Part shown: piece by piece, positions 924 to 64,000 of the stretch | Layout: the number at the start of each line of letters is the position of its first letter | Position numbering within the stretch: position 1 is the stretch's first letter | DNA from: Nemertoderma westbladi | Taxonomy: Eukaryota; Animalia; Xenacoelomorpha | Direction: 5' to 3' | DNA: 64,000 nt | NCBI GenBank assembly: GCA_032718475.1 | Contig: JAUCBJ010007289.1 | Coordinates: 248,001-312,000, forward strand | Made by a program: the position numbers and the translations under genes | The notes under the pieces: model-generated | What the model was told of the DNA's origin: nothing | The model's input: the letters and a program-made list of their open reading frames with translations, nothing else | Database searches by the model: none

Positions 924-932
924 CCACCCCCC

Positions 933-4753: not shown

Positions 4754-4793
4754 CGCGATCGTGACGTTGGTTGTTCCGGTTATCGGGTGGTAG

Positions 4794-4814
4794 CAAATCT
4801 CGTCTGGGTCACCA
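4794..4814 (-). promoter_or_regulatory. G1 primer-binding site, tRNA-Trp-like
   Basis: TGGTGACCCAGACGAGATTTG, 1 nt after the 5' LTR. Two mismatches to the eukaryotic tRNA-Trp 3' complement TGGTGACCCCGACGTGATTTG (from recall). Confidence 0.85.
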
Positions 4815-4815
4815 A

Positions 4816-5068
4816 TGTGGGAGCGCTAGAGAGTCGTCCCTCTAGCCTTCCAACTTCTTATATTATATCAAAAGGTTATATATATAATGATATTGTGTAA
4901 TGAAACAATATAGGCCGTTAGGTACCGGTAGGTATGTGACAGCAGTATATATATATGAACTCAATGTTGATCTAGTTGCTAGGAAACCCCCGCAGTTGCC
5001 ACAGAGATCAACTAAGCAAAAACACGGGTTATCAGTGACCATTAGCCCCGAAGGGGCAGTCCGCTACA
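4816..5068 (-). repeat. 5' LTR of G1
   Basis: Direct repeat of 671-923. Confidence 0.97.
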
Positions 5069-5654
5069 TTGTCACAAGCAATTTTATTTTTTGAATGGAT
5101 TTTTTTCAAAATTTCGGGCTTGCACCAAAATTTGCACACAGCAACGAAAAATACAAGTTTGATACGCTTGGTGCAACTCGTATATATTTCATCGAATCTA
5201 GAAACCCAAAAAACCCCAATTGCGTAAAAAACAAGTTTCAAACAATCAATTTACAAAATTGACTTATTTCAAAATTTGGTGCTGGCACCACAATTTGGCA
5301 CCCACCGAAAAAAACAAGTTTGAAATTTCTAAATCAATTTATATGAATTCCATCAAATTTCTAACACCAAAAAACCGGTGTAAATAATAAATAGAGATGT
5401 TACAATTCATATTTAATGAAATGTAATTTTCAAAAAACGTCTCAAAAAAAGTGCCAAAAGTAGGGTTAAAAAATGGTGCTATAACTCGAAAAGTACCCAA
5501 TATTTTTGAAAACGGTTTTCACTACTAGGAAGACAATAGATTTTTAGTAAAAGTCATAAAATTTCAGATACCCAAATGCGTATGTTTCAGATTTATAATA
5601 AAAAAACCACGGGAGGGGTCATATTGACCCCCCCCCCGGGTTTAATAGGGTTAA

Positions 5655-10569: not shown

Positions 10570-11097
10570 ATCAGTAGACATAGTACTGTTGCTATGTCAC
10601 CATAGCAACAACCACGCTAGAATTAGAAGTGAGTTAAAAGAACAATAGAAAGCTTGCCCCATTGAATAGCATAGGGAATAAATAGCGCACTGCTAGTATC
10701 CAAGGATACATAATAAATAAAGTGACATTCTGGAAGGTACTGACTAACGGACAAATGGCCCGAATGTGTACAGTTTGTGGCAGTTGTGTTGAATTTGTGC
10801 GTTCATAGGTGAATGTTACTGCTAAAGTGTGTTTACAGTAGATAGTCGCAATTGTGAAAGTAGCCCTAACTCTCCAGAAAGAACCTGAAGTACATCTAAG
10901 CCTTTGGGACGGACAGTGGAGTGACTTGTGCCGGTTATCGTTGTCGTTGTGTAGCTACATCGTTGGTGAAAGCACAGTGACGACGGTACATCGGCGCTGA
11001 GGATCTTGCACTGTCCGGGGGCAAAAGAGGGGTAGGCAGCGACGCCCGCTAGCCTAATATATAAACTCATTATAATATTGATATACTCATAGCAGAT

Positions 11098-16114: not shown

Positions 16115-16410
16115 ATATTTAGAGCGCCACGTCCTAAAGGAACTGTTAATATTTCCCGAAAGTGAATAATATTTGTCAGAGATTATATATATTAACGATC
16201 AGTCGAATAATACAGTAGGCCTACCCCGCAATACGGTTAGGCTTCCGAATCCAGTCTCCCGGGTATATCCAGCGGGTGAATGATCGCGCATAGACTGGCT
16301 TCGGCTAATGTAGTGTATCAAATACTTGTCATAGGCTAAAGACGATCTATTATCTAGAAGACATCCCAATTTGGCAGGTTAAACTGCTAAAGGTCTGAAA
16401 GCGCGAACAA

Positions 16411-17806
16411 TTTCTTAATTTTATTCTAAGCGCTAAATAAATTACCATATCTCAAATTACAGAGTTGCTTACTAATTACTAAGTATTCCAGAATACGTAT
16501 TTCTAATTTATTACGTTCTGAGTTATACTAGCAATAGCCTAAATGCCGTATTATTTTGACCTAACAGCGATTAATAAGCATAAACTTAGAAATAGAAAAC
16601 AATCAAGAGAAATAGCGCCTATCTAAACATTACGATCAAGCATCAGGCACTCCTTAAACAACATAACATAAAATAGCGTTAGTGGCAGAGCTGGTAGCGC
16701 TAGTGTAGCGCTAGTGTAAAAGATCCAGGCCACCCAAGCTACAATGGCCTTCCTAACTAAACCCACTAGGCTACCGTAGTACTTTAAGGCTGAGACGAAA
16801 TCTGGATCGTCAGCTCCCAAATGCTGTAATGACGACCGGTCCCTGGTCCCTAACTGATTAGCCCAACCACAACTGCTAGCCCCCCACCACCGTTGCCCCA
16901 CATTGGAACCGCCACACTTCCCTCCATCGCTTCAATGGTGCGCCTACCGCGCCTACCAGTACCTTTAGCCCTCCATGCTAAAAGAAATAGCTACCGTATC
17001 GGCGCATGCGTTCGCAAACAGTCTGACAGTTGAAGGGAAAATCCTTGTTAGGATTTGCTACATCGCAAAGATTAATGAAATCGAAGTCATTCTAAGCAGT
17101 AATCATTATTCAAAAGAACAGAAATCAGTATTTGCAGTTTATGACATACAGAATTAACGAGAAATGACAAGCAAGAAGATCAAAAAAACATTAAATCAAC
17201 TAACATAGAAAAACTCTACTGCTGTACTGGTGTACTGGCATACACTGACATACACTGAACAAAATATAGGTATGACGCAATAATTATCTCATTGGTCCAA
17301 CAAATTAGGCCACCATTAGACTAACCTAAAACAGCTGGGCCAATGGGGAAGCTGGATTGTGATCCCTTTCGCCCCATTTCACAAATTACTACCATATATG
17401 GTAATGAAATCTGTCCCGGTGGGCTTATAGGTTTGTGGCCGTAACATTAATTTCGCGATTATTAAAGCACATTTTAGGCGTTATTTTAGCACAAACATCG
17501 ATTTATAGGGAAATGTAAATAAAATTAGCACAAATGTATTAGATTCGATAGATATTGGAAAACGGCAAAATTCATATTTTGTTTTTAAAGAATTTTGCCA
17601 CTGCAAATGAATATATCAGAGTTTTATTATAAAATTACGTAAATAGGGCTACATACTGTATAAAATTCGACTGAATATAAATTGAACTTGTGTATTTTTT
17701 ATTTACCCTATCTAATTATTACGGTTGCACATCAATACGCACTTATCTAACTTATTTTATACTTTATAACGGGTTGTTTCAGTACACAGCGCCATATATC
17801 GTAACA
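16411..17806 (-). repeat. B1 3' LTR (U5 end missing)
   Basis: Begins TGTTACG on the minus strand after PPT TTGGAGCGG. Homology to 61487-62803 stops at about 16411. Confidence 0.9.
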
Positions 17807-18682
17807 CCGCTCCAAGGGAAACAAGTAATGTTTCCCTCCAATTGTAGAAGAAATATGGTGGTGTGAAATGACAAAATAAATTTATTTTCAAATAAATCAA
17901 ATAATTCAGTTCTAATAATAATTTCGTACAAACATTGCCATTTATACTGCATAATAATGATTACATACAAATTAATACAAAATATTGCCACTGTTATTGC
18001 ATAATGATAACTACATACAAATTAATACAAATTAGATTACAAATATTCTTTCTTGCTATATTTACAAATTAACAATTTTCTTGTTGAAATGGTACATGGC
18101 TAGGACAATGTCCCCCATTTCCCATCTCAAATTAACGATCAACAATAACAAAATAAACTAAATATAAAACATATTTGAGGCTAAATGTTTAACTAAATAT
18201 TATTGCATTTAAGGCCGATAATCAAACTAAATATAAAATACATAATAATTTCTTTCTTTTTGAATCTTTACTTAATGTATAAAAAACGCAATCACCCTTA
18301 AATTGGATGATTGCTCAAGTAAGTGAAAGGAGTAAGCCAAACCCGCGGGTTTGTCTCCCCAATCACTTCCTTCGCATCTTCCAACAACTTTTAGAACAAA
18401 TAAATCTATATGTGTATATGAGTCCAGTCGGATATACAATGGTCGCCTACAATATACATCAGAGCGACGATGACCTAGAACACATCTATGTAGCATTTGG
18501 AATTGTCTTGGGTTCACTTATAATTTAAAAATTGTTAATTTTCCAAACATTTATGAAAATTTTAATTTTGTTTTGATACCCACCAGACAAATTCTCAACG
18601 CAATTCACCTCAAACCCGCTCCTATGCATTTCCGAGTATTTGCATACGAGGAATGCATACAAAGTGAATTTGCGCTCTGACA

Positions 18683-22435: not shown

Positions 22436-22452
22436 TTTTCTTCGAACCGGAT
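22436..22452 (+). promoter_or_regulatory. C primer-binding site, degenerate tRNA-Tyr-like
   Basis: TTTTCTTCGAACCGGAT resembles the tRNA-Tyr complement TGGTCCTTCGAGCCGGA (from recall) but lacks the TGG. Confidence 0.6.
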
Positions 22453-22771
22453 AACCGGATACCCGGCCTACCCTACCCTGGCCTACATACCACGGCCTAC
22501 AATTTAATTATACAGTCCACGTTCTGACGTTTACAAATTCGTTGCTTCTTCATTCTTACATTCAAAGAGAAACAGACATAAAACTGTAAAAGGAAATTCA
22601 AAGGTGCGTGTTCCTGTTGATATTACTTTACTTCCATACTACAGCTAATGATATTGATTTTGTTGTCAATCTGTCAGTTTACAGTTCTTCTAGTGATTGT
22701 TGCTGAAATTCAAGCTGTCAAAAGTCAGTAAATAACGTAATACTGTAATATAAATACAATTAATTCTGATC

Positions 22772-25140
22772 ATGAATCCGAACTTATATTTAGCTTATAT
22801 TACTGAACTAGCTGGACGTCAGGTCCAACGTCTTAATAACCTACAATCGCAGTTAATAGATTTGGCCATTCTGACCCAGATAATAAAGCTGCAAATTATG
22901 AGCGTGAATTGGATAAAGTTTTATTTAAAGCTAACCGTGTCCTGTCACGATTAGATCGTCAGCCAGACAATCGTCTGGGGGATGCTGCATCTTCTACCAC
23001 AAGTGAATCCAATAATGTTAGTGATCCAACTCGTGGACTGCCAAAAATTTCAGTCCCTCATTTCAGTGGGGAATATCTGAATTGGCGATTTTTCTGGGAC
23101 CAATTCCAGGCATTGATCCATAACCGTGTAGGGCTTAGTGATATACAAAAATTTGTATATTTGAGAGATGCTCTACGTGGTGAAGCCTTAGATGCCCTAA
23201 CAGGTCTTTCTGCCACTTCTTCGAATTATCAGTCTGCCATAAAGATACTTCAAAGACGGTATGGCAACCCTAACTTACTTATAGGCATATATGCTAATCA
23301 GCTTTGTCAACTCCCTCCAATTAAGGAGGGAAATATTCCATTGTTTCGCAAAACAATAAATATATTTGAGGGGTCATTACGAGAAATTCGTCAGCTGGCT
23401 GCTGAATTTGACCCAAATCTGGCTATTAAGGACAGTGAAACTGATCCAGCCAATACTTCAGCTACTGCACAATCTCTGGATTTAACGTCATTACTGTTGG
23501 CACCTTTGTTATTGCAAAATTTACCAGAGCAAGTAGTTCTTGTGTGGAATAGAAACCACTCAACAGATCGCTTTAATCTCAATCATTAACTGGAATTTGA
23601 TATGCAGGAATTGGATTCTAGAGAGTCATTGGCATTTTCTGCTTCTTTAACTAAATCAGAACCTACAAAACCTAGTTTTAAAGGTGTTCATAATTATCCA
23701 TATAAGCCAAAGACCAAACCCCTAGCTACATCTGCACTTCCAGTAGTTGAAAATCGGACAAATATTGTTTGTCCATTTTGTACTCAAATGCATACACTTC
23801 GAAATTGCCCTTCATTTCAAAGCAAGTCAATTGAGCAACGTATTGCCTTTCGCTGCAATTCCAATATGTGTTCAAACTGTTTAGGTCCTCATAATCTTAA
23901 GGACTGTCATTCAAAAGGTTGCTGCTCAGCATGTGGTAGACGACATAACACATTGCTTTGCTTCAAGAAATATGGAACTCCTTCCAAGGTTGCAACTGAA
24001 CATCCTGTAGATCAGTTAACCAGTACCGATAAACATTGGAATGGTTCCATTTCCAAACAAAACCACCCTGCAGCAGCATCTCGGCCATCATCTGGGCAAA
24101 CTTTTAAACCAAGTCTTTCCGCAACTCCTTGGGTTCCTGGAAGTGTAACTACTCCAAATGATACTTCTATGCCAATTGCTCCAATTAAACCTACTGCAGT
24201 AGAACAAAATGACTCTGTCTTTGTTAAGTTGGCCTTATCTGTCATTTCTTCACCAATGAGCCCTTCCACATGTGGTTATCAGATTTATGTCTATATGGAT
24301 GATGGCTCCAAAAGAACGTATATTAAAAGTCAACTTGCCAATGACCTTAACCTGCCAATATATAATACATGTCAAATGTCTACTGGGTCATTTGCTAATA
24401 CTGTGACTACACAAGAATCAAATCGTGACCAAAGAGCCAGAACAACACTCACCAAAAAATGTGGTTTCGAGAAAAATGCAAAAAACTTTCTCATTTCCCT
24501 CTTTATGGATCCCTTCTCCTAATTTTTTCGACAGAGGTCTGGGAAGATACAATGATACATTTTATAATAGTGGCTAGCATTCAAAATGAATTTTGTTAAT
24601 GAAAAAAACTTTTTTTTTCGTTATTTTCCAAAGAGACAAAACAACACATACTGAAATTTAACATTAACTCTAGTCTGTGTGTGTTGTTTTACCTCTAACG
24701 GTTTTCAACTTTTATGTTGTGAGGGTTGTTCTGGTTTTCCATATCTCCTAAACGGACTGACATACAAGTCTAGGATTTTAACATAAGATGTAGAACGCCA
24801 TCTTGAGTAATTTTGGTAAAAAAAATTTTTTTGAAAAATTGTGGTATGTGTTGTTCTGGCTCTATGGTCACGAAATTATGTTTCATTTAATTTATTCAGC
24901 CAGTTTTATGAAGAACCCATTGAGTTTTTTGCTTGGACAGCAAATGACTTATGTCCAGTAATACTCCAGGAGCGTATTGACCCTCTCCCTTCATTTCTTT
25001 CCCACCTTTCAAATTGGGCAGATATTTATGATGGAGGTGAGAGAACCATATTTATAATTATCGGAGCAGACCAGCTATGGAAGGTTACTGGCGATACCAA
25101 TTATACGCATAATCCTTCACTTATTGATACCTACTTTGGG
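22772..25140 (+). pseudogene. gag: C gag and protease (DUF1759-like core, Cys/His knuckles, DDGS protease)
   Basis: LPKISVPHFSGEYLNWRFFWDQF; CPFCTQMH..C, CSNCLGPH..C, CSACGRRHNTLL; YMDDGSKRTY; IIIGADQLW. Carries a frameshift, a stop and a MITE insertion. Confidence 0.9.
24424..24872. mobile_element. 449-bp non-autonomous TIR element (Sola1-like MITE)
   Basis: TIRs CGTGACCAAAGAGCCAGAACAACAC / GTGTTGTTCTGGCTCTATGGTCACG. 4-bp TSD AAAT at 24420-24423 and 24873-24876 fits the AWWT target of Sola1. Removing it restores the frame QESNYVSFNL. Confidence 0.88.
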
Positions 25141-26225
25141 CGCTGAGGATCTTGCACTGCCCGGGGGCAGAGAGGGGTAGGCAGCGACGCCCGCTAGCCT
25201 AAATATAAACTCATTATAATATTGATAAACTCATGTAGCAGATATGACTGAGTTGATAGAAGATGATCTTGGTATCAGGGAGCGATATACTCTACCTTTA
25301 CAAGCGTTTGTCGATAGATTGATACGCGGCGACGCTGGTCCAACTACTACGGAGGACGATGGTCGTTATATCGAACCGCCAATGTCCCAGGAGCAACTTA
25401 CGCGTGAATTGGACTATAGAAAATTCACCGCTCGCTATACGCATCGTAATGGTACGTATATGGACTTCTTAACTACTGGCCATCCTATCGATTTACACGA
25501 TACGGACGATGTAGACACCGAAAGGGAAATGGTTTTATTTAAATATCATACCCAGCGGAGTCTGAACGATAAACCGAGAATAGAACACGAGAATTCTATT
25601 CGAAACAGACTCGAAAGGGAAGACGTTGAAGAGCCGGATAAACGCAGCGACTTCAACGATTATCTGGAATTCCTGAGAGAAACATATCTCAATATTGCCA
25701 GTCAACAGAATCTAGAAACTCGATATCCTCAAGGTATACATCATGACCCTATGATAGAACTCAAACGACTCTATTTCACTATGATGTATCTTACCGCCGA
25801 TCGACCGCTACCTGTCGTCCCAGATAGCTTCGAACAGATGGAGGAATATTGTAAAACTGGAGAACGATCACCCGCGTTTCCCCTGCAGGACGTGCGTCTT
25901 TGGTATTACTGCGACGAATGCCCTAGACCCAATCAGCAAACGGAAAGACATAAACACCCGTGGAGACGTTGCGCTAAACACAGTTTTACACGATATACTT
26001 ATGGGAGTTTCGAGCGAAACCTGTTCGACGTATCACCTACGCTCGCTCGACTCAAACGATCCTTGAATAAACCAATGATCAGAGTTCCGGAATACTCAGT
26101 CAGACCTCCTCATTCCTCAGTGAGACCTCAAACGCTTGATCCTAATAGTATAACGGATCCCCCTGAACTGTACTCCCTATTTAAAGATCTTGTGTTACCC
26201 GAACAGTTGATCGGTGGCACTCCGG
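25139..26225 (+). mobile_element. Internal fragment of element D (second copy of 10993-12081), including the intact 5' part of ORF1 from 25244
   Basis: High-identity match from GGCGCTGAGGATC to GGCACTCCGG. ORF 25244-26260 runs into the B2 LTR. Confidence 0.93.
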
Positions 26226-26226
26226 C

Positions 26227-28207
26227 TGTAAAACAGGGGCGATCAGGAGCGCGTTATTAGTGCCGCACTGCTGCTAAACACAAAACTGCTACTCTCCGCT
26301 GGATGGCGCTAACCTGGCCGTCCGCTAATATTTTTACTAAATTTCTACGGCTCCTGCAAATCGCTTGTTCCTTTCTCTGTTGATTGCTCAACAGAGAGCT
26401 AACTGTTCGAATCTATGAGCCACGCGGGAATAACCAAAACAATAAACCCGAATCGGCTCCCTAAGCTACTTAAAACGAGTGCGGGTGACGTAGCACTCGG
26501 AGTTCACTTATCGCAAAATACTGGAATTCACTGGCAGAACACGTTGAATGTGAGAATGTTTTAATATTAAGGGGGATAGATCTGTTACTTTCCTAGGTGC
26601 TGAAGCTTGGCCTTTGGCTGGTTTTAGACCAGCAAACTTACTACTGCTGTACTGTATACTGGACACTGCTGTCAGTCCGTTGCCCCGCTATTTTCAAATA
26701 ACCGCCTAGCGTGAATAGTCTACAGTATTCTAAAACAATTACTTAAACTACTCTCCGCTATGCTGCGTACAAATTCTTATTTTATTTTATCACTAAATTA
26801 ATTACAGTCATAAATACAAAATCGCGTACTAATTACTAGATATTCCAGAATACGTACTTCTAATTTATTACGTGCTGGGGCTTATACTAGCAACAGTCTA
26901 AATGCGGTATTAATTTGACCTAATTAGCAATTAATAAGCATAAACTAAGAAATGGAAATCAATCAAGGGAAACAGCGCCTATCTAAGCATTCACATTTAA
27001 GAATCAGGCACTCTTTAGCAACACAACACAAATAGCGTAGCACTAAGTTAGTAGTACGGCAGATAGCGCTAACTACACCAATCAGCTAGTGCACTAAATA
27101 CCCGTACATTAGTACATCAGTATACCAGTATTAGTCATCCAATCAATCAATCAGTCAGTCAGTGTAAGAACCACAGGTCACCCAAAGCCACACATGGGAC
27201 TCCTAACTAAACCCAAATTCTGCCCCCCTAAAACTACAAAGTAGAGACGGAAATCTGGATCGTCAGCCCCCTAATACTGTAACAGCGGCTGGTCCCCGGT
27301 CCTCAACTGACTAGCTCCGAACGCAACGGGGGCCTCCCGCCAGCGTCGCCCAGCTTTGGATCCTCTGCACTCCCTTCCGTCGCTTCCCCCCAGTGCGCCC
27401 GCCTACCAGTAACTTAGCCCTCCATTAGAATGAATAGCTACCGTAGCGGCGCATGCAATCACAAACAGTCTGACAGGCTAAAGAAATCCCGTGGGATTAT
27501 CACATCTTAAATCACATAGGAATTAATAATCAAAAGTAGAAATCATAATTCAAGGTTGTAATTTGCAGTAATCGATTGAGAAAAACAGAAAGATAGACGA
27601 AAGATTAACAATTAACAGAAACCAGAAACAAACTACAATACTGCCACTGGTACTGCTGTAACAACTGAGAACTAGATGCACATACCGGAAATACAGCCAA
27701 TTTATAGGTGATGCAACAGGGATGACGCAATATTCCTCTCATTGGTTCCCCAATCCGCCCCACCATCAGACCAACCTGGAACAGCTGGGCCAATAAGGAA
27801 GCCGGATTGTGAACCTCAGGGCTTCCAAATCGCAAATTATTACCATATATGGTAATGGATCACGTCCCTGGCTGCTGAATGGTTAGGATTGCGTCCCTGG
27901 ATGCTGGCCCTATCGAGGCTAATAACAGCAAGCCCATATCCAGGGTCCAACAAGAACTTGCTACCCTGGACCTATCTACTTATATCCTATTACAAAACTA
28001 CATAGGTAGGGCTACATACTATACAAAATGGATGAATTCAAAATATATGGACGTTTCAATTTCCTTATCTAAATGTCATTGCGCATTATTGTCTTATCTA
28101 AATAATTATACTGTATAACGGCTAATATATTATACTGTATAACACGGACTAATATATTATACTGTATAACATGGACTAATATAGGTACAGCGCCATATAC
28201 CGTAACA
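26227..28207 (-). repeat. B2 3' LTR (1981 bp)
   Basis: TG...CA, direct repeat of 42607-44558. Contains ~27-bp tandem units at about 28102-28183. Confidence 0.96.
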
Positions 28208-29395
28208 CCGCTCCAAGGGAAATCATACAATGTTTCCCTCCAACTGTAGAAGAGTATAAGGCGATGTATACAAAACAAAATAATTCGCTTTCAAATAATC
28301 TAAATAACTTGATACTATAATAATTCTACTATTTACAAATATTGCCATAGATATTGCATAATGAATTACATACAAATTAAAATTACAAAAATTTTATCTC
28401 TCTCAATGTTAACGATTATTACATACAAATTAAATTTACAAAAATACTGTTTTCTCGTTCGTACTACATAATGATTACTACATACAAATTAAATATACAA
28501 AATATTACTTCCTTTATTTATTTACAAATTGACGGTCTACCTATTGAAATGGAACATGGCTAGGACAATGTCCCCCATTTCCCATCTCAAATTAACGATC
28601 AACATTAACAAGATAAACTAAATATAAACGTATTTGAGGCTAAATTTTAACTAAATTGCATTAAAGGCCGATATTCAAATTAAATATAAAATACGTAATA
28701 ATTTCTTTCATTTTCGGACTTTACTTAATTTCTTATAAAAAACGCAAATCATCTTGGTTTGATGATTGCTCAGGTAAGTGAAAGGAGTAAGCCAAACCCG
28801 CGGGTTTGTCTCCCCAATCACTTCCTTTGCTTCTTTCAATAAACCTTAGAGCAAATAAAGTCATATACACAAAATCAAATATAGTATAGGCTCAAAATCG
28901 TATTTCCAACAGACTATAAAATAAAAGTATTTCCTTTCAATATTTTTCGGCCTTCGAAAATAAAATTCTAAAATATGGATACGACTAGTGTATATGAGTC
29001 CAGTCGAATGATTGACCAAAACCTACGATATACATCAGAGCGACGATGATGTATATGTCTAGAGTTTGTCGCTCCGTGATATTATAGTCTCATCGGCTAG
29101 CTGCTGAGTCTCTCGGGCTCGCTCCCTTCCCCAGATACACCAGTCTACCCCCTGTAGACTGTTGACGGCGTCCTTGAGGCGTCACTTCCCGGAACCGGCG
29201 ACGACGCTCCCTGGGCACCGACTATCTCCCGACTGGTGCTCCTCCCTCGGCCTCGTCCCATTTGCCGTGTCCCTGAGGGCGCCGCGAGCTGTGAGCTCCG
29301 GCTGTTGTCGCTGTGGGCGCGGTGGTCCTGATCCTCCACTCGTTCAGAGGTCAATGACCCCAAACGAGTCTCCTTAGGCCGCCAATTGTATAATT

Positions 29396-35009: not shown

Positions 35010-36330
35010 AGATTTATTTATACATTATGTAAAAACAATAACAAATACACCAAACAATGTACCGGTATTGTCCAACATAACATATAGGATTACCCCTAAA
35101 GCTTTGCAGCTTATTTCCAAGGGGGTCCTTTATGTTACTTGGTTACAAATACAATATTACACTACGCTAACCTAAAACCAATATAAAACGTAATTACACT
35201 ATGTACATGTACAACTTTACCGAGAGCGTGACAATGTCCGACTCAACGATAAAGATGTAATGTACAGAACAATTTATTATAAAACGTAATTACAGTATAA
35301 ATAGTAAATAATTAATAAACTAATAACTTACTGTAGGACTATTGTACCTATTTTTACATTGCACACGGAGATGAGATTTAACTGCAGATTTAAAAGAATG
35401 TTGATTATTTAGGTTTTTAATTTCATTAGGAAGAGCGTTCCAATTTTTTATGCCGTTAAAAAAGAAAGTATCAGATTCAAAGGATTTACAATTCGGGAGG
35501 TAGAAGTTTAAAGCACTAGCTCTGGTACTGTAAGAGTGTGTATCGCGTACTCTGTTGAATTTTTGTTTTAGGTAATTGGGACATTTACCATTATACACTT
35601 TATGCACATGGTTAAGGCGTAGCTGCTTAACTCTACTATCTAAGTTAAGTAGTCCAGATTCAGAAAAGTCATCTGGAGTTAGGTGGTGCCTAGGTTTGTA
35701 GTCTTTAATAAATCGTACTACTTTATTCTGAGCTACTTGTAATTTACATTTAAGCTGTTTGGTTAAGCCTTCATACCAAAAAGAGCATGCATAGTCCATG
35801 TGACACTGTATTAAAGAAGAGCAAAGTAACTTGCGGGAGTCGGTGTTCAAACTATTTTTATTTCTGTATAGAAACCTAAGCCTACTGTTAACTTTCGAGA
35901 AAATATTTTTCACTGTACTTTCTCCTGATAAGCAGTTATCCAATGTGGCGCCTAAATATTTAACTTCCTTTTTATTTTCAATCTTATGTCCATTACTAGT
36001 GACTTCAAACTTAGTTACCTTCTTTAACTTTCTTTTGGAACCAAACAAAATACTTTCAGTTTTACCGTAGTGAATGGATAGCTTATTATCAACCAACCAC
36101 TCATTACAGGATTCTAGAACTGCACTTAACTTTTGGGAAATATGGATAGGATCTTTATGAGAGAAAATAAGAGCACTATCGTCGGCATATAAAATGAGTT
36201 TAAAATCGGGATCTATACTACTTATCATATCATTTACATAGCATACAAAAAGCAGAGGACCTAATATACTACCTTGTGGTACACCACAGGTAATCTCTTG
36301 TACAGTAGACAGCGATTTGCTAATGATTTG
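35010..36330 (-). mobile_element. 5'-truncated L2/CR1-group (Crack-like) LINE, copy 2
   Basis: RT motifs GVPQGSILGPLLF, LYADD, VKYLG. 6-bp TSD CTCGTT at 35004-35009 and 36331-36336. Empty site present in B1 near 55582. Confidence 0.95.
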
Positions 36331-39300
36331 CTCGTTTCCCATATTTGGTGTGCGATCAGCTGTTCCGCACCAATCAACATAGAAACATTCCTATAACCTA
36401 CCTGGTGTCTCGGTATCCTGAGCTTGTCAAAATACTCCTGTGCTATGGGACTCATCGGCGGCACCTTACCTAACTGCCTGCCGAATCCCTTCATAGCTAG
36501 ACACTTAAATCCGTCCAATGGCAAAGCTCTCCGTTCTTGTCGAGTATGCTGGTCTCTCGGAAGTAGGGAGTCTAGTTCTACCGAAATTCTGTGTCCCTTG
36601 AGGTCTCCTACTCCATGCATAGACTTCAACTCTATTTGTATTTCCTCTGCATCCTGGAAGCTAGAAACAGCTCTCGCCACTTCCTCGTCGATATACGATA
36701 ATGTGGACGCAGTGTCCAACATCACATATATTCGCTTAGATCCCTTATCGCCAGTAAGTTTCACCGGAATCACGCTAAATATTTCCGACGTGACCGATGA
36801 TAAATACGTCCGCGCGCTGGTCGATGAACTATCCGCGGTGAAACCTTGGCAGGTCACCTCTCTTGCGCTTGACTCGCCATCCTCGTCCGACGAACCTGGT
36901 TGATAACCATCTTCTTGGATGCCGGTATACGTATTCCTTCTTATCGATACGGGTTCTTTGCTCCCCTTCCTGTGAGGATTTCGCTGTAAGTAACGGTCCG
37001 TTGGGGTATGGAAATCCGCATGTAGCAACTTGTGATGTAGTCTGCCGCATTCCATGCATCCGTCCTTGCTGTTCGGGCACTGCCACCGTACATGACCTGG
37101 CTCAAGACATGCCCAACAGGTGTCCAACGTCCGCACTTGAACTCTTCTCTGTTCCGAATTTAATTCTTTGAACCGTCTGCAACTATCTAACTTATGATCG
37201 TCAGATCTTACCTCCTTTAGTAAACAGTATTGGCAACCTACAAATCCATCCGGCAACTCCTGTTGCTTTAACCTAGGTCTATCTAACCGCTCACCTGACC
37301 ATACTCGCGAGTCTGATCTAAAGGCTGGGGTACTCGAATTATATCTGTCTACTGAGTTAAATGTCACAGTGGTCCTGTCATCGTCAAAACTTACCATAGA
37401 CTTACCGGTAACAGGTTTAGACTCCCTCATATTCTCCTCTGAGAAGTTTGATTTCATCTCTGCTACTGCATCTGTGGCTATCATGTCATGAATATGCTGA
37501 AGTGTCAATACTTTACCTTGGCCTTCCAACTTATTCTCTAATTTGCGCCATTTCTGTCGATAACGCATGTTTAAACGTCTTATTACGCTCTTTAAAACTT
37601 CGGCGTGATCACCATGATGAGGTAGATTCACCGTCCTCAAGATGTCCAATGCATTCGAAATAGCGTTCGCTAAGTTCAACAGCTCTAACGGAGTTGTAAT
37701 CTTTCCGCCCTTACCCAAGTCTTCTACTATCGACTGCGCCATCTTGGTTTTATTCCCGTAGATGTCGCTAAGCGTCTTCATTGCCAACTCAAATGCCCTT
37801 TCATTGCCAACGAAGTTGTCAGCAATGGCTCTAGGTTCTCGATGGAGCATCTGAAGCAAATAGTTGAACTTCTCGTTGGGAGTAAAGGTGCTGTTGGTTA
37901 GCTGCTCGTCGACATAGGTTTTGAATGTCCTCCAGTGCTTGTGGTTACCCATAAACTTCTGGGGTTGTTGCGTCGGCAGTCCCTGCCTAGCAGCAAACTT
38001 ACCTATGTCCCTAAGGGTTGCGTCGTTCCGGGTTAACAAATGGTTTAGTTCCGCAGGGTTGTTAAGTCTGGTCCTTTCCCGGTGGTTCCAACTTACCTGC
38101 TCCGCGTCGGTCCTTCTTTCCTTATAGTTTTGGGACTTCTGACGTCTCATGTCTTCCTCTTCATCGCTTGACTCGGTGTCAGTCCTTAGTGCTCGTGTTG
38201 GTTTGCGCGCCTAGGCTTTGATCCAAGCATCCTGAATAAATTTTTCGGCCGAATTTTCGAAATTGGGATTATGGATAGTCGGGACAGGCGTCCTTACCTG
38301 AGGTCTATGTGGTATAGTTTACTCCGATATACGTACTCGTTGACTAGGCTGGACTTTATCTGACTCAGGCCTGCTAGGATTAGAATTACTTCTTACCTGG
38401 GCTGTTTCCTTTAACTGTAGGTTACTAAGCATGTCCATTATAGGTTGGATGTGCGGTGATATAGCTTGCGCTAAACTAGCACTTAACTCATCCCTCGTAA
38501 TAAATTCCTGGCTAGGGTTCTGTTGTATAGTCGGCTCTATCTGAGTAATCCACTCTCTCTCATATGATCCCTCCTCCGGTTTAACCCGGAAGTTCTCCGT
38601 CGAACTGGGTCGGCGCTCCATCCGCGTATTCCAAACCCGCGGGTTCGGTTCGCCCAATACTCGGCCCGTCGGAGTTTCTCTAAACTCTTTGTTGTCTCGT
38701 TCGGTCGCTTGCGTCCTTCTGGGCTCCTCCCCGAGGCGCACCCACAAGGCGGATGCTGTCCCACCACCCCTGGGGCCAGTCTGACTGATGTTATTATCAG
38801 ACTGGGCCGGAGGGTGGCCCGATGCTTCCCGGGTTCTGTTTTCGGTCCCCCGATCACACCGGCACAGCTCGTCGAACGTGTAGCCAGATGGGCGGCTACT
38901 GTCAACTTACTGTGGCCTGACTGTACATTGAGCCAACTCAAAGTATAACAAAGAGTCAACCGGCAGGTGGACCAGTCGATAGCGATCGAGCACCTAACTG
39001 ACGGTCTTGTCCCAAGCGGGCTTGCGCTACCCAACATGGAATATTGACACGTTTTCACCTGCCTCGCCGGCAGTATTGAGGGGACTCCATTCCACAACAA
39101 TACTGACTAGCTCGAAAGCTAGGAACAAGTAACCACTTACCAGTCACTGTACACGTGTACTCAACAGATGTTCACAATATCAAGTACACTACGGTAAACA
39201 CAAAATCTGACACATACCATGCACACACAGAAGACATAATCGGGAAAGACAAAATCGGGGTCAAAATCGAGAGGGACTAGTTGTATCGACTAGAGACATC

Positions 39301-41653
39301 GTGAAAGAGATAGTCGAGAGTACTTTATTTTACCGTCAGGGTAAAATAACTTGTATGTACGAAGCATGCTGGGGCGCAGTAAAGTATGGTCCTACTAATA
39401 CCAGCGGCGTCTGGACCAACCGGCAAGGTTTCCCACACTCACTCACAGTGGCCATACATACAATCACGTGTACTCACATACCCACAGCAACAGAAAGCTC
39501 ATCTCAGACCTAAACACACCCCAAAGACCAATCAGCTGAACATGGAGACAATAACATATAGTATCAAAAAAACGGAACAGCTGACGGTCAATGGCACACA
39601 TCCAAGCCCCAAAGCTAACTGCCACTGCTCGCCCACATACAAATCACAGTTCACACCACATGGACCACAAATCACGCCATGCCACCACCCCTACTGTGTA
39701 CAGGACTGGCAGTACGGCAACAGGCCGACTAGATGGAACCACGGCACCATGGCAATTCATGGTTCGCTAGACACGAGGGCCTTCAGTAACTCCCTAGCAC
39801 TATACACCAAATTTAACGTGCCCCCAGACCATCACGAGTCCGCTGCCGCCTGTTCTACACACCCCTATAGAGACCTCACCTCTTTAGGTATGTAGTGGTG
39901 CGGTGTTCTGATGACGTGGATTCTGCGCGATAGGTGAAGCACTAATACCAACTGGTGTGCGATATGTAGAGAACGGTTTAGCGATCCGAGTACTCGTAAT
40001 AGCTGGACCGGGTATAGGAATTCTGGTCGTTGTCGACTCGCGTATAGTCGGAGTTCTCGCTTCCTGTTCGGCCTTCTGCAGTGCGAACAGTTCTCGCAAC
40101 TCAGTCCCTACACTCGCCCCACATTCTTCGATCATTCGCAACCCCTTCTCGGCGATTTCATTTGCCTTTCTAGTCCGTTCCTCGCTCTCTAGGTTTAATC
40201 TCGCACTTTCCAACTGCGCCAGTTTACGTTCTTCTTCTTCCCTCGCTCGTCTCGCTGCGCTCTCTTCTTCCACACGTGCCTTCTCTTCATACAACGCCCG
40301 TCGCTCCCTCTCGCGCTCAAGTTCGCGCTCCTTGCGCTCGCGTTCGAGTTGGAGTTCGCGTCTTCTTTGCTCGCGTTCCTTAGCTTCCCGTTCGCGTTGG
40401 AGTTCGCGTTCTTCGCGTTCACGTTCGAGTTGGAGTTCTCGTTCTTCGCGTTCGCGTTCGAGTTGGAGTTCTCGTTCTTCCTGTTCGCGTTCCGCTTGCT
40501 CACGCTTACCTTTGTCTTCCAACTCTCGCAACTTTGCGTCTAACTTACGTGTGCGCTCCCGTTCCCGCTCGGCTTCCTTCTGTGCTTCCGATGCACGCAA
40601 AACTTCCGCCTGCTGTTCGTCCAGTCGGCGTCTTCTCTCCTCCGCCGAGTTGTGAGAAACAAGGGATCTAGCACATATAACTTTCCCTCGCGCGTGACTA
40701 ACCTGGGAATCGCCACTGTCTCTAGATGCGTCGTCGGGTGGAGTTAACGTTCTCTGTTGGATTTTGTCTGTCGTCGGCAGCACCTGGCCCGGTACCACCA
40801 CTCCACTCTGCATCAGCCAGCTGGTAACTTCCCGTTGATACCTGCGCTCCTCCTTATCCTGCATCTCTTCTCGCTCCACTAAGTTTCTTAACTCTGCGTC
40901 ACTCACTTGGGTCGCCTGCGCTTGTGATGCCCATAGCAACCAGTTCTCCGTCCTAACTCGCCGAAATCGCTCCGATAATGCGCGGTGCTCTAGCAAGGCT
41001 GCTAAAACCCTGTCGTAAATCCTCGTCGCCACGTCGCTCGACTGAGACTCCACTGCTCTCTTTGCTAAGACTGCAAGCTCCTCCGTCTGTTTGAATAACG
41101 CTGAGTTGTATCCCTTTCTAATCTCTACTAACCCTTCCCTTCCGATGTTCGCTGAGTCAGCTAGCATCTTCCTTACCTTGTCCGCCGTCCGGGTTATATG
41201 TCCGGCATGCGCGCGAAGTTTCTTCTTTATCGCGATGTCAAGTTCTCTTTCGCTTACCTGACTCACACTTGGTGGACTTGAAGGATTATTTCGGGAACTA
41301 CGGGTACTCCTTATAGCCGCTGGGACCACGGCACTTACCATACCCACAGGTCTGGAAACCGGGCTCCGGGCTCTCGCTTCTGCTACACTACCCTCCCTAT
41401 CACTCACCTCTGGCCGGGCTGCTATGCGGTCCTTCCTTACAGTAGTGGTAGGGGATCCTAATACTATTACTTGAGGTTGTTGTTCTTCCTCACTAGTCAC
41501 TGTCTCGTCCTCCTGTTCACTTACGTCAGCGTCGCTTGCTGCGTCGTCATAGTCGGCATTGTCGTCGACAGTTATGTCTACACTGTTATCAGTCGGCGGT
41601 CCGGCCGCCGTCTCATAGCTGTCCTCTAGTGCCTCCTTGTCTGAGACACTCAT
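36331..41653 (-). pseudogene. gag: B2 gag-protease: long acidic/coiled-coil N-terminus (39884-41653), Gag core, three Cys/His knuckles, DTAS protease
   Basis: (ERELQLERERE)-type repeats; KFMGNHKHWRTF; CQYC..H..C, CWACLEPGH..C, CMECGRLHHKLLH; VMLDTASTLSY. Interrupted by stops and a ~1.1-kb extra segment. Confidence 0.9.
38750..39880. other. ~1.1-kb segment in B2 gag with no counterpart in B1 (unclassified insertion)
   Basis: B1 57890-57970 goes directly between the two flanking homologous segments. No TSD or TIR identified; boundaries approximate. Confidence 0.65.
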
Positions 41654-42595
41654 TGTCTAAGTAATATTTTGCCTTCCGGCTAAAATCTCGCAAAAATTCG
41701 AGATATATATAATTTAATCGAAATGCGGTTAAATTATTTGTCAAATAATTGGTTGGTCCCAAAATGTCAAATAAATTCGCAATACAATATTGGGAATTTA
41801 ATAAGATATAGTTATAGCAAATACCGGTATAATATTTAAAGAAAAATATTATTATATAGCCATTATATAGCATTTAAATACCGGTATGACACAAAAATAA
41901 TTTCTGAATCTAATTCAAAATATTCAAAAATGAATTTGCCACCCAAATATTTCTAACTTTATATATATATAGCTCAAAATCAATGTAATTTTATTTTTAA
42001 ATATTATTTCTATATCCACTAGCGCGTGGCTACACCTTCAGGTTGCGACACTCTCTCTCTCTCTCTCTCTAACTGAGCGATCCAAAACACCATGGCCGGC
42101 TAAACCTAACTATCCTAACTAATAAATTGAGTTCAGTTTCGCAGTTAAACAACCGGTAATTTTTTACTGCTTCCACAAATACTATGGTGCCAACAGAACA
42201 ACTAACCTTATTTGCTGTGAGATTCCACGTCCGCGTCCAAAGTTTCAGACTTTTCGCTGATTGCAAACCGAACCCGCAGGCCCACACAAACCCCAAACTC
42301 AGAAGCTCCGTCTCGCCATGTATCTCCAGATGGTATAAAATAATTAAGCGGTTATCCAACATACCGGTACAAAAACTCTAGATTTTATTATATAAATTTT
42401 GGCCGAAACTGAATTCTCACAAACCTAGCTAAAATTTTCAAAAAACTTACTAATTTACAATTTACCCTAACGGCCCAAATGAATTGCTGTATTCCGCGAT
42501 TAGTGAACAAATGTTACTTCTCACTGTTGCAAAGCAACAGTAAAAAATAAAAGTAAAAAAAATGGTTCTTACTGTACGTAGTACAGTAAGTCAAA

Positions 42596-42606
42596 GTGGT
42601 TCTTAC
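42596..42606 (-). promoter_or_regulatory. B2 non-tRNA primer-binding site GTAAGAACCAC
   Basis: Immediately follows the 5' LTR end (..TTTAACA). Exact complement of the LTR-internal 11-mer at 27164-27174 read in element sense. Confidence 0.7.
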
Positions 42607-44558
42607 TGTTAAACAGGGGCGATCAGGAGCGCGTTATTAGTGCTGCACTGCTGCTAAACACAAAACTGCTACTCTCCGCTGGATGGCGCTAACCTGGCCG
42701 TCCGCTAATATTTTTACTAAATTTCTACGGCTCCTGCAAATCGCTTGTTCCTTTCTCTGTTGATTGCTCAACAGAGAGCTAACTGTTCGAATCTATGAGC
42801 CACGTGGGAATAACCAAAACAATAAACCCGAATCGGCTCCCTAAGCTACTTAAAACGAGTGCGGGTGACCTAGCACTCGGAGTTCACTTATCGCAAAATA
42901 CTGGAATACACTGGCAGAACACGTTGAATGTGAGAATGTTTTTATGTTAAGGGGGATAGATCTGTTACTTTCCTAGGTGCTGAAACTTGGCCTTTGGCTG
43001 GTTTTAGACCAGCAAACTTACTACTGCTGTACTGTATACTGGACACTGCTGTCAGTCCGTTGCCCCGCTATTTTCAAATAACCGCCTAGCGTGAATAGTC
43101 TACAGTATTCTAAAACAATTACTTAAACTACTCTCCGCTATGCTGCGTACAAATTCTTATTTTATTTTATCGCTAAATTAATTACAGTCATAAATACAAA
43201 TTCGCGTACTAATTACTAGATATTCCAGAATACGTACTTCTAATTTATTACGTACTGGGGCTTATACTAGCAACAGTCTAAATGCGGTATTAATTTGACC
43301 TAATTAGCAATTAATAAGCATAAACTAAGAAATGGAAATCAATCAAGGGAAACAGCGCCTATCTAAGCATTCACATTTAAGAATCAGGCACTCTTTAGCA
43401 ACACAACACAAATAGCGTAGCACTAAGTTAGTAGTACGGCAGATAGCGCTAACTACACCAATCAGCTAGTGCACTAAATACCCGTACATTAGTACATCAG
43501 TATACCAGTATTAGTCATCCAATCAATCAATCAAAGCCACACATGGGACTCCTAACTAAACCCAAATTCTGCCCCCCTAAAACTACAAAGTAGAGACGGA
43601 AATCTGGATCGTCAGCCCCCTAATACTGTAACAGCGGCTGGTCCCCGGTCCTCAACTGACTAGCTCCGACCGCAACGGGGGCCTCCCGCCAGCGTTGCCC
43701 AGCTTTGGATCCTCTGCACTCCCTTCTGTCGCTTCCCCCCAGTTCGCCCGCCTACCGGTAACTTAGCCCTCCATTAGAATGAATAGCTACCGTAGCGGCG
43801 CATGCAATCACAAACAGTCTGACAGGCTAAAGAAATCCCGTGGGATTATCACATCTTAAATCACATAGGAATTAATAATCAAAAGTAGAAATCATAATTC
43901 AAGGTTGTAATTTGCAGTAATCGATTGAGAAAAACAGAAAGATAGACGAAAGATTAACAATTAACAGAAACCAGAAACAAACTACAATACTGCCACTGGT
44001 ACTGCTGTAACAACTGAGAACTAGATGCCCATACCGGAAATACAGCCAATTTATAGGTGATGCAACAGGGATGACGCAATATTCCTCTCATTGGTTCCCC
44101 AATCCGCCCCACCACCAGACCAACCTGGAACAGCTGGGCCAATAAGGAAGCCGGATTGTGAACCTCAGGGCTTCCAAATCGCAAATTATTACCATATATG
44201 GTAATGGATCACGTCCCTGGCTGCTGAATGGTTAGGATTGCGTCCCTGGATGCTGGCCCTATCGAGGCTAATAACAGCAAGCCCATATCCAGGGTCCAAC
44301 AAGAACTTGCTACCCTGGAACTATCTACTTATATCCTATTACAAAACTACATAGGTAGGGCTACATACTATACAAAATGGATGAATTCAAAATATATGGG
44401 CGTTTCAATTTCCTTATCTAAATGTCATTGCGCATTATTATGTCTTATCTAAATAATTATACTGTATAACGGCTAATATATTATACTGTATAACACGGAC
44501 TAATATATTATACTGTATAACACGGACTAATATAGGTACAGCACCATATACCGTAACA
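42607..44558 (-). repeat. B2 5' LTR (1952 bp)
   Basis: Direct repeat of 26227-28207, with ~30 bp missing near 43533. Confidence 0.96.
44012..44094 (-). promoter_or_regulatory. Putative B2 LTR core promoter (CCAAT, TATAAAT, Inr-like TCAGTT)
   Basis: On the minus strand: CCAAT 44090-44094, TATAAAT 44049-44055, TCAGTT 44012-44017. B1 has CCAAT and TATATTT at the homologous position. Confidence 0.5.
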
Positions 44559-60491: not shown

Positions 60492-60502
60492 GGATCTTTT
60501 AC
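60492..60502 (-). promoter_or_regulatory. B1 non-tRNA primer-binding site GTAAAAGATCC
   Basis: Follows ..CTTAACA at the inferred 5' LTR end. Exact complement of the LTR-internal 11-mer at 61780-61790 and 16716-16726. Confidence 0.65.
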
Positions 60503-62803
60503 TGTTAAGCAATCCAACTTGGTCCAACGCAACTGTTGAACCTTAAAATCTTACTGTTGAACACAAGCAGGACCTTCAGAACCGTCGACTAAGAATATTT
60601 TACTGTTATATATGGCTCTGACAATCACGCGCTCCTTTCTCTGTCGATTTCTCAACAGAGAGCTAACTGTTCGAATTTATAAACCACCACAGCAATAACC
60701 AAAACAATAAATCTGAAATGGCTGAAATTTTAATTCACTTATACGATGCTATAAATTCACATTTTCAGGTTTTCGAGGGCGCTGATTCTAATGGAATACA
60801 TTTCTAATATGCCAGATCATTGCTACTTGTATTTTTCGGCGTAATTTGGCAAATTTTGGTGCTAGCACCAAATTTCGTACCCATCACCAAAAAGTACAAG
60901 TTTGCGATGTCCAGTGCTTTTTTTATTGATTCCATTGGATTCAGGACCCTCATAAACCCGTATAACGCAAGAAACAAGGTGATACTATCTACTGATCAAT
61001 TTGCCTATTTTCCAAAATTTGGTGCTGGCACAACAATTTTCACCCACCGGCGAAAAATACAAGTTTGAGAACTCTTATGAAATTTTTACTGATTCCATTG
61101 AATTCAGAACCATCACAAACCCGTATAACGCAAGAAACAAGGTGACACAATCAATTGATATATTTGATGGTTTTCAAAATTTGGTGCTAGCACCACATTT
61201 TGCACCCACATCCGAAAAAATACAAGTTTGAGATGTCTAGTTTGATAATTATATATTCCATTGAATTCAGAACAGGCATAAACCTCTAAAACGCAAGAAA
61301 TAAATTGTCACAAGCAATTTTATCTATTGAATGGATTTTCAAAATTTTCGTGCTAGCACCAAAATTTGCACACAGCAACGAAAAATAAAACGCTGAATGG
61401 AAATGAAAAACGCTTAGCGTTGAATATTCTACAGTAATTCTAAAAGTAATTTACCCAAAGCTATTCTCCGCTATGCAGCATACAAGTTTTTAATTTTAAT
61501 CTAAGCGCTAAATAAATTACTGTATCTCAAATTACAGAGTTGCGTACTAATTACTAAGTATTCCAGAATACGTATTTCTAATTTATTACGTTCTGAGTTA
61601 TACTAGCAATAGCCTAAATACCGTATTATTTTGACCTATCAGCGATTAATAAGCATAAACTTAGAAATAGAAAACAATCAAGAGAAATAGCGCCTATCTA
61701 AACATTACGATCAAGGTTCAGGCACTCCTTAAACAACACAACATAAAATAGCATTAGTGGCAGAGCTGGTAGCGCTAGTGTAAAAGATCCAGGCCACCCA
61801 AGCTACACACGGCCTTCCTAACTAAACCCACTAGACTACTGTAGTACTTTAAGGCTGAGACGAAATCTGGATCGTCAGCTCCCAAATGCTGTAATGATGA
61901 CCGGTCCCCGGTCCCTAACTGATTAGCCCAACCACAACTGCTAGCCCCCCGCCAGCGTTGCCCCACATTGGATCCTCCACACTTCCCTCCGTTGCTTCCA
62001 CAGTGCGCCCGCTGCGCCTACCGGTACCTTTAGCCCTCTATGCTAAAACAAATAGCTACCGTATCGGCGCATGCATTCGCAAACAGTCTGACAGTTGAAG
62101 GGAAAATCCTTGTTAGGATTTGCTACATCGCAAAGATTAATGAAATCGAAGTCAATCTAAGCAGTAATCATTATTCAAAAGAACAGAAATCAGTATTTTT
62201 TTTGCAGTTTATGACATACAGAATTAACGAGAAATGACAAGCAAGAAGATCAAAAAACATTAAATCAACTAACATAGAAAAACTGTACTGCTGTACTGGT
62301 GTACTGGCATACACTGACAAACACTGAACAAAATATAGGTATGATGCAATAATTATCTCATTGGTCCAACAATCCCTCCCACCATTAGACTAACCTAAAA
62401 CAGCTGGGCCAATGGGGAAGCTGGATTGTGATCCCTTTCGCCCCATTTCACAAATTATTACCATATATGGTAATGAAATATGTCCCGGTGGGCTTATAGG
62501 TTTGTGGCCGTAACATTAATTTCGCGATTATTAAAGCACATTTTAGGCGTTATTTTAGCACAAACATCGATTTATAGGGAAATGTAAATAAAATTAGATA
62601 TTGGATTCATATTTTGTTTTTAAAGAATTTTGCCACCGCAAATGAATATATCAGGGTTACATTAAAAAAATTACGTAAATAGGGCTACATACTGTATAAA
62701 ATCGACTGAATATAAAATGAACTTGTGTATTTTTTATTTACCCTATCTAATTATTACGGTTGCACATCAATACGCACTTATCTAACTTATTTTATACTGT
62801 ATA
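60503..62803 (-). repeat. B1 5' LTR, carrying a piggyBac-like fragment and cut by an RTE insertion near its U3 end
   Basis: 61487-62803 matches 16411-17769, and 60590-60722 aligns to the B2 LTR. The TGTTAA boundary at 60503 is inferred from distance to the B2-aligned block. Confidence 0.85.
60725..61387 (+). mobile_element. Internal fragment of the piggyBac-like element (no termini), including the empty Gypsy site
   Basis: Matches 86-670 joined to 5073-5153 with a single TTGT. Confidence 0.92.
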
Positions 62804-64000
62804 ATAATGGTTCTTTTCGGGGAATCTCATTGATCTCGATTGCTGCAAAGCTATACAATAGGTTTCTATTAAATCGCATCAGGGATCCCATTGAGAGACT
62901 GCTCCGTGGAAATCAGAATGGGTTCCGTAAAGGTCGTGGGACCATGGAGCCCATTTTGGCACTTAGAAGGATAATTGAAGAATTATCAAAAAAGAAAGAC
63001 AGGCATCTGGCTGTTGTCTTTGTTGACTTCTTCAAGGCCTTTGATTCAGTCTCTCGCTCACGTATGTTCAGCATACTTTCATTATATGGGATTCCTGATG
63101 AAATTATTGCAGCAATGAGATCAGTATACGATGGTTCGACAACATTTGTGTCTACTGTTGACGGTGACACAGAACCATTTGAAGTGTTATGGGGCGTCGT
63201 CCAAGGAGACACACTTGCACCATTCTCGTTCATTATTGTGGTTGACTATGTTCTACGCATGTCCTTAGATCATCATAATGATGATGGGGTGATGATAACT
63301 CCACCTACTGGCTCCAGAGGTCGAGGAAATCCTGCCAAATACCTAACTGATCTAGACTTTGCTGATGACTTAGGAGTACTCTCAGAATCATTAGAGGGAG
63401 CCCAACGGCTCCTCAGCTCATTAGAACATGCTGCTTCTAGTGTTGGTCTTTTTATTAACTCCAGAAAGACCAAAATGTTGACAGTTAACTTTGAAAGTCC
63501 TCAGCAAGTCTCTGATCGGATGAGCATAAGCTCAAAGGATGGTATGCTTGAGCATGTGGACGACTTCTGTTACCTGAGATCATGGATCCGGAAGTCAGGT
63601 GAGGACCTTCGAATACGTAAGGGAAAGGCATGGGCAGTCTTGAATAGGCTTTCCAGGATTTGGAAGTCACCGAGAATTAATCGGAAACTTAAGGTCCGAT
63701 TATTTAGAGCAGCAGTAGTTCCGGTACTCCTTTACTGGAGTCCATGCTGGGCTCTAACTGCTGAGGAGAACAAATCTCTGGATGGCACATTCACAAGAAT
63801 GCTACGTCTGGTTCATTGTGTCACGTACAATGCACACATCTCCAACCAGACACTATATAACATTGGAGGTGTCTCATTGGTTCCCCCAAGCTTGACACTA
63901 GAACAAAATCGCCTCCGCTTTGCAGGACATTGCTTTCGCCGTGAGGACCAGCCGGTGCATAGTCTTGTACTTTGGCAGCCTCATGGAGTGAATAAGCATG
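62804..64000 (+). mobile_element. 5'-truncated RTE-clade LINE; RT frame open to the window edge (absent from the ORF track)
   Basis: Manual translation from 62815: FRGISLISIAAKLY..NQNGFRKGR..FVDFFKAFDSV..GVVQGDTLAPF..LDFADDL..INSRKTK..RLRFAGHC, with no stop. Confidence 0.95.

Follow-up and report, generated by a model that had tools for sequence, protein, structure and literature searches.

A probable self-priming site in an intron-less, long-LTR lineage of BEL/Pao retrotransposons from Nemertoderma westbladi

The window considered here, a stretch of 64,000 nucleotides of Nemertoderma westbladi DNA, contains two elements, B1 and B2, that lie on the minus strand and are nested among other retrotransposons. 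By their protein domains both are BEL/Pao (Belpaoviridae) retrotransposons. B2 has PF03564, PF05380, PF17921 and PF18701 as well as a YMDD motif, in the RT-RH-IN order of BEL/Pao, and PF05380 and PF03564 are present in B1. The closest database proteins are BEL/Pao polyproteins with at most 42% identity, and the named protein relatives come from marine invertebrates and fishes. TG...CA LTRs flank the B2 coding region and the LTRs of B1 are truncated; the LTRs are about 2 kb long and the element about 13.6 kb. Insertions and frameshifts disrupt both copies, and one of them, an insertion of a 163-bp-repeat element at about 60724-61407, interrupts the 5' LTR of B1. The acidic motifs of the predicted B2 RNase H are present. 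The features of the two elements are collected in the table.

Features of elements B1 and B2 in the 64,000-nucleotide window
Feature	Position	Strand	Remark
B1 3' LTR, truncated before U5	16403..17806	-	
B1 partner, 3' LTR	16716..16726	-	
B2 3' LTR, 1981 nt	26227..28207	-	partner 11-mer present
B2 partner (predicted primer 3' end)	27164..27174	-	in 3' LTR, 937 nt upstream of LTR end
B2 integrase piece, PF17921 and PF18701	30814..32361	-	
B2 pol piece: RT (YMDD), BEL/Pao RNase H region PF05380	32310..34799	-	acidic motifs present
B2 gag region, several broken frames	36264..41656	-	PF03564 at 36264-38210
B2 second, 10-nt copy of the site, in leader after TACA	42563..42572	-	one of three ACA/GT units
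B2 candidate primer-binding site GTAAGAACCAC	42596..42606	-	flush with LTR end
B2 5' LTR (TGT...ACA), 1952 nt	42607..44558	-	without partner 11-mer
AATAAA, candidate poly(A) signal	43244..43249 (B2); 61582-61587 (B1)	-	kept in both, downstream of partner
Junction of 31-nt deletion, B2 5' LTR	43532..43534	-	2-nt microhomology
TATA-like hexamer of B2	44050..44055	-	motif only
B1 candidate primer-binding site GTAAAAGATCC	60492..60502	-	
B1 5' LTR, 5'-truncated	60503..62804	-	3' end presumed
B1 partner, 5' LTR	61780..61790	-	

Several other features of the window are described here for completeness. The B2 gag region starts with a 590-aa frame (39887-41656, minus strand) that has an acidic N-terminus, E/R-rich charged repeats and no Pfam match. 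Before the 3' LTR, B1 and B2 have only the same short purine-rich run (28208-28216 and 17807-17815). A nine-codon upstream frame in a conserved part of R is kept in both elements with a synonymous change (about 27425-27455 and 62040-62070, minus strand). The 163-bp-repeat element is also found at 88-670 and 5065-5400, where it is split by a Gypsy element (671-5068) with a 4-bp TSD and a TGG site, in addition to its insertion in B1 (60724-61407). Another repeated element (10993-15163 and 25139-26225) has four frames of 277-418 aa without a Pfam match and is abundant in sequencing runs. A BEL/Pao element, E, has a tRNA-type site, as the first-pass annotation had stated, with TGG and without a self-match, and a Gypsy element, G, likewise has a TGG site and no self-match. 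Element C, which has a 5-bp TSD, carries a site (22436-22455, plus strand) without TGG and without a self-match (6 nt) that we take to resemble a tRNA-type site. No tRNA genes were found in the 64-kb window with ARAGORN.

Minus-strand synthesis begins within a few bases of the end of the 5' LTR, and whatever anneals there is the primer. The first-pass annotation had proposed that B1 and B2 lack a tRNA site at this position and that the 11 nt following the LTR pair with a slot in the element's own LTR. The coordinates of all five 11-mers are exact, no TGG occurs in the 120 nt after the B2 LTR end, and the first TGG after the B1 end (60503) is 53 nt away. The slots in B1 and B2 are homologous, lying in register between common CCT and ACT flanks, and the exact duplexes end at 11 nt in both elements. 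The rarity claimed for such a match also stands, since an 11-nt match at spacer 0 arose in 2 of 4000 dinucleotide shuffles of each element, a figure that rises to 12-13 of 4000 with spacers of 0-5 nt. It had further been held that the two duplexes are related by five compensated changes. Five of the 11 ungapped positions do differ, but a single 2-nt indel together with about two substitutions would also account for the difference.

The geometry of the pairing is secure for B2 and less so for B1. Pairing starts at the first post-LTR base in B2, whose LTR end (42607) is set by LTR-LTR divergence. The end of the B1 LTR had been placed at 60503 and is more doubtful than was said. Among six ACA candidate ends of B1 only 60503 has an 11-nt complement (5-8 nt for the others), and the terminal inverted repeat is 5 bp at 60503 versus 4 bp at 60555. 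A global alignment of B1 with B2, on the other hand, puts the true end of B2 opposite B1 60555, and 60503 opposite the third AACA/GT unit in the B2 leader. A further end that had been offered as an alternative, 60604, aligns inside the U5 of B2 and was rejected. The B1 end cannot be fixed independently and 60503 rests circularly on the match, so that the complementarity in B1 is real and its flush geometry is assumed. Each element has three ACA/GT units (42520-42610 and 60500-60560), which include the 10-nt second copy of the B2 site. These units could record shifts of the LTR end through priming at duplicated sites.

The claim that the B2 LTR holds the complement is true of the 3' LTR but not of the 5' LTR, from which a 31-nt deletion has removed 10 nt, the partner 11-mer and another 10 nt; the longest complement that remains there is 4 nt. 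Because only the R of the 5' LTR is transcribed upstream of the site and this LTR has no slot, the B2 copy could not prime in cis. The two B2 LTRs have 22 mismatches in 1950 positions. A target-site duplication was looked for at B2 and none was found, and the two LTRs may thus stem from different insertions.

On the B2 LTR, 4616 contigs were obtained from four DNA runs, with similarities from 99% to below 90%, which implies a large group with many subfamilies. No substitution in the slot 27164-27174 was seen among the 134 aligned contigs listed from the four runs, in a test that had no positive control and in which strongly differing contigs show up as loose ends and not as substitutions. The 31-nt deletion was likewise absent among the contigs listed in this same test, which had no positive control. 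Among those listed, the loose ends begin at 27174 in three of the runs and at 27175 in the fourth. Upstream of the slot these contigs agree with the flanking sequence; across it they have other letters, and they show what would be further subfamilies with different slots. Taken by itself, the window gives a weaker case than had been held, as the 5' partner of B2 is deleted and the B1 end is derived from the match itself. The strongest evidence comes from relatives and not from these two damaged copies.

Relatives were sought by a profile scan of metagenome contigs, which gave 525 among 601 stretches, and the best 80 of the 525 were retained. Flanking direct repeats were present in 34 of the best 80 loci; 31 were inspected, 14 taken forward and 12 analysed, namely those with the LTR end placed at the point of LTR-LTR divergence (L008 and L043 were left out). 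The relatives are at 35-42% protein identity, and the metagenome loci may come from few host species. A match of 10-15 nt to the element's own LTR, with a spacer of 0-4 nt, was found in 11 of the 12 loci. It is contiguous in four of these (L046, L051, L057 and L074). In the other seven (L007, L013, L017, L031, L032, L034 and L038) it exists only across a canonical GT-AG intron, with predicted splice joints that have GTAAGT, GTAAGC or GTACGT as the donor and a pyrimidine-rich AG acceptor. That the match exists only across an LTR intron in 7 of 11 loci points to the spliced element transcript as the partner. That an intron in the LTR commonly interrupts the partner had escaped the first-pass annotation.

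When sites and LTRs were swapped between loci, 2 of 270 pairs reached at least 10 nt under a strict splice rule and 13 of 240 reached 10 nt under a loose one, two of the 13 being the related pair L017/L031. When 65 pre-gag regions from 59 loci were scanned blind, a match of at least 11 nt was found in 14 of them versus 10 of 520 swaps; the other 51 fell below 11 nt, and many of these 51 are visibly short or may be without an LTR. Outside the 12 loci, L008 at its real divergence point and L044, the twin of L043, each have 11 nt. It had been asked whether related families always carry the complement. Eleven of the 12 distant BEL/Pao loci do, but L026 has a TGG-type site (L026:55-75) and a self-match of 4 nt. 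Across the TGG-type sites of L026, E and G and the degenerate site of C, the self-match is only 4-6 nt.

Other features of the relatives bear on how such a match might be used. At 24 sites the 3' end of the predicted primer is AC in 19 cases, AT in four and ACT in one. L027, which has a split slot, and L051 are close in the tree and differ by one letter in the site, with the complementary letter in the partner. L051 has an intron-bearing 5' LTR copy and a contiguous slot in the 3' copy. These copies (L051:1-326 and 6694-7103) are 88% alike, and the intron-like stretch of the 5' copy ends in an AG acceptor inside the slot; they are perhaps two variants joined in a single contig. In 12 of 13 LTRs the slot is followed, at a distance of 12-295 nt, by a poly(A)-type hexamer, a position that strand transfer requires. 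The distance is as short as 12-14 nt for L032, L038 and L057, and in B1 and B2 the AATAAA is 193-295 nt past the slot. Both LTRs of L032, and likewise of L034, are near-identical and keep the intron. Folding with duplexfold, without a shuffle control, gave 3-4 further pairs after a loop in seven elements.

A FastTree phylogeny was built from 81 RT-RH segments, comprising 77 loci with at least 450 aligned residues together with B1, B2, C and E, and was rooted on E, although this root is weak. Split-slot and contiguous-slot loci are interspersed in the tree. L026 is nested among self-matching loci, and it may have retained or regained tRNA priming. B1 and B2 form a long branch outside the 77 loci. 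The relatives could therefore be a parallel case and not the B1/B2 lineage, and the argument for a shared origin is limited by the weak root. No match to the B1/B2 LTR pattern was found in the metagenome contigs, and no relatives were found in two scans of viral contigs.

How do B1 and B2 compare with known systems? According to the ICTV, the primer site of Belpaoviridae has 18 nt and serves tRNA-Arg or tRNA-Gly, the LTRs are 0.2-1.2 kb, the genomes are 4.2-10 kb, and replication is poorly understood (PMC8742986). B1 and B2 resemble the family in their LTRs, the gag-PR-RT-RH-IN order and the Pfam domains PF05380, PF03564 and PF18701; they differ in having no tRNA site and in LTRs (about 2 kb) and an element length (about 13.6 kb) above the ICTV ranges (PMC8742986). 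As the tRNA site is missing, B1 and B2 are, by sequence, a BEL/Pao variant and not a typical member.

In the portions available of the sources on Tf1, the self-primer is the first 11 nt of the RNA and is cut by RNase H (PMC7175516); in those on Tj1 of S. japonicus, self-priming has been proposed (PMC4600332). Within the same portions, Tf1/Tf2 of Schizosaccharomyces pombe, Tj1 and the Tf1/sushi group share with B1 and B2 the lack of a tRNA site, the complementarity of an 11-nt post-LTR site to the LTR of the same element and a cut predicted at the duplex end (PMC7175516, PMC4600332, PMC5341516). However, Tf1/sushi elements are Ty3/gypsy (chromovirus-related) and B1 and B2 have BEL/Pao domains, so they are not members of that group. 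A second difference from Tf1 is that the slot of B1 and B2 is about 540 nt past the sole nearby TATA-like motif, which is seen in sequence only, and that the slot of the relatives is mostly split by an intron.

Self-priming has also been predicted from sequence for the plant TAR elements (Houba, Osr-1) of Ty1/copia and for Tcn1, in the part of the source available (PMC6317226). The rule given in that part is nearly the same, at least 10 nt starting 0-5 nt after the LTR, but it concerns plant copia or chromovirus elements and takes contiguous matches only (PMC6317226), so that it would miss splice-split cases. The half-tRNA-primed Copia elements (copia, Ty5 and Bianca) also have a site without TGG and a primer 3' end that arises by internal cleavage, going by the accessible text of the sources (PMC6317226, PMC10886601). 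These Copia elements use a fragment of a host tRNA as primer, and all members of a lineage have the same site (PMC6317226, PMC10886601), whereas sites of the B1/B2 type vary with the element's own LTR. No report of self-priming in BEL/Pao was found in the open literature, with subscription papers, Repbase, GyDB and supplements outside the scope of the search. Searched by term, the available portions of four BEL/Pao surveys (PMC3118150, PMC554778, PMC6238403, PMC8556966) gave no discussion of the primer site.

The loci compared show that the letters at the post-LTR position differ freely between families and follow the LTR of the element itself, often in the predicted form of the spliced transcript. 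The earlier proposal that a BEL lineage is primed by its own RNA is thus supported, and the distant BEL/Pao relatives add independent support. On these comparisons the primer probably derives from element RNA. For B1 and B2 the best reading, which we consider rather likely by analogy, is self-priming as in Tf1, in which the element's own transcript would fold back and be cut in cis by RNase H. The RNase H cut of Tf1, as given in the accessible portions of its sources, is the closest precedent for the 3'-OH (PMC7175516, PMC5341516).

The steps of such a mechanism can be outlined as follows. Transcription would start in the 5' LTR, upstream of the slot. The TATA-like hexamer lies 542 nt upstream of the partner 3' end in the intact B2 LTR and 557 nt in B1, and on this motif a start about 510-525 nt upstream of the slot is suggested. 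In most relatives splicing of the LTR intron would first assemble the slot, B1 and B2 being the intron-less form. The transcript would then fold back and be cut after the final AC of the slot, and the RNase H of the element would be the likely agent of this cut, as it is in Tf1. In B1 and B2 the cut would free a 5' piece of about 0.5 kb ending in a 3'-OH. RT would copy U5 together with the R sequence that follows the cut and then jump to the 3' R, which the mechanism would place between the slot and the poly(A) signal. All sequence upstream of the cut would be inherited from the 3' LTR copy, which would account for the usual retention and occasional loss of the intron. Judged by motifs, the predicted primer measures about 12 nt in L013, where the TATA is 119 nt upstream and the intron takes up 77 nt; it would be about 100 nt long in L051 and about 0.5 kb long in B1 and B2. 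The B1/B2 transcript would have to close a loop of about 900 nt and be cut about 500 nt from its start, an arrangement for which no tested precedent was found in the literature consulted.

Other sources of the 3' end were considered for B1 and B2. A ribozyme or self-encoded small RNA was rejected, as the window has no Rfam match at the gathering score; Rfam gave one chance-level match only on the B2 LTR (E 2.6), and a hammerhead core pattern was absent from the two LTRs in which it was sought. A conserved structure upstream of the slot has no support (z of -0.44 and -0.85, covariation term of +0.7 from three sequences). An intron does not split the B1/B2 slot, which has no AG before it and a contiguous match. 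For a possible intron upstream of the slot there is an acceptor common to both elements and no clear common donor. Release of the primer by the spliceosome was also rejected, since B1 and B2 have no GT after the slot.

An alternative to folding in cis is that the primer is element RNA that acts in trans or comes from the 3' end, either a separate LTR transcript, the partner RNA of a dimer or a 3' LTR copy trimmed to the slot by a host nuclease. This explains the same complementarity and avoids the 900-nt loop, it agrees with the survival of the B2 slot in the 3' LTR only, and little trimming would be needed in L032, L038 and L057, where the hexamer is so close to the slot. The much greater distance to the AATAAA in B1 and B2 speaks against it. 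Moreover, a spliced 3' copy used as primer should erase the intron from the progeny, yet the LTRs of L032 and L034 keep it. We regard a primer of this kind as unlikely.

It may also be suggested that the duplex is structural, with a role in packaging, dimerisation or protection of the site, and that priming in truth falls to a host RNA, for instance a tRNA cut internally in the manner of copia and Ty5. Priming by half-tRNAs is known in Copia lineages, and the nesting of L026, with its TGG-type site, among self-matching loci fits this view. However, in the available portions of the sources half-tRNA priming is reported for Copia only (PMC6317226, PMC10886601). The sites also vary widely among families, each tracking its own LTR. 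A primer must anneal a few bases from the LTR end, which is precisely where the self-match sits, and a structural duplex is accordingly improbable.

A third possibility is that the match in the window is a relic or a local accident, in which the ACA/GT units and small duplications of U5 and leader gave B1 a match off its true end and the pairing in B2 is disused. The presence of three units in each element and the alignment of the B1 end at 60555 are in keeping with this, as are the lost slot of the B2 5' LTR and the missing TSD of B2. Against it, once the four letters common by descent are allowed for, the orthologous slot of B1 would match one or other of the six candidate ends by chance with a probability of about 4e-4. 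Neither a slot substitution nor the 31-nt deletion was listed among the 134 contigs, in the test without a positive control, and the pattern recurs in relatives. An accident of this sort is very unlikely. Least credible of all is that the pairing hides a splice donor directly behind the LTR and so spares unspliced genomic RNA: the B2 site does start with the donor-like GTAAGA, but the sites of many relatives start with GTT or AT, which are not donors, and the element would be left without a primer site.

The post-LTR match is a real feature, and what it reflects is probably self-priming in BEL/Pao, here in an intron-less lineage with long LTRs. In its broadest form, to which we lean by a little, the proposal is that a broad BEL/Pao group dropped tRNA priming and would use its own transcript, usually spliced across an LTR intron and cut at a conserved AC, with splicing gating reverse transcription. 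B1 and B2 would be a branch without the intron; their LTR is 2 kb long, their primer would measure about 0.5 kb, and their 11-nt primer and site would form a hypervariable pair that changes between subfamilies.

Self-priming has been shown for Tf1 and predicted in some gypsy and copia lineages, and the BEL/Pao case, if true, would be the third LTR superfamily. It would also mean that the primer need not be the first bases of the RNA. In many relatives the primer would exist only after splicing, which would tie reverse transcription to the host spliceosome. Elements of this kind may escape silencing by tRNA fragments that are aimed at the primer site. They would be overlooked or wrongly classed under annotation rules that demand a tRNA site or an uninterrupted match, and the conserved AC end provides a precise spot at which the cut can be sought in RNA data.
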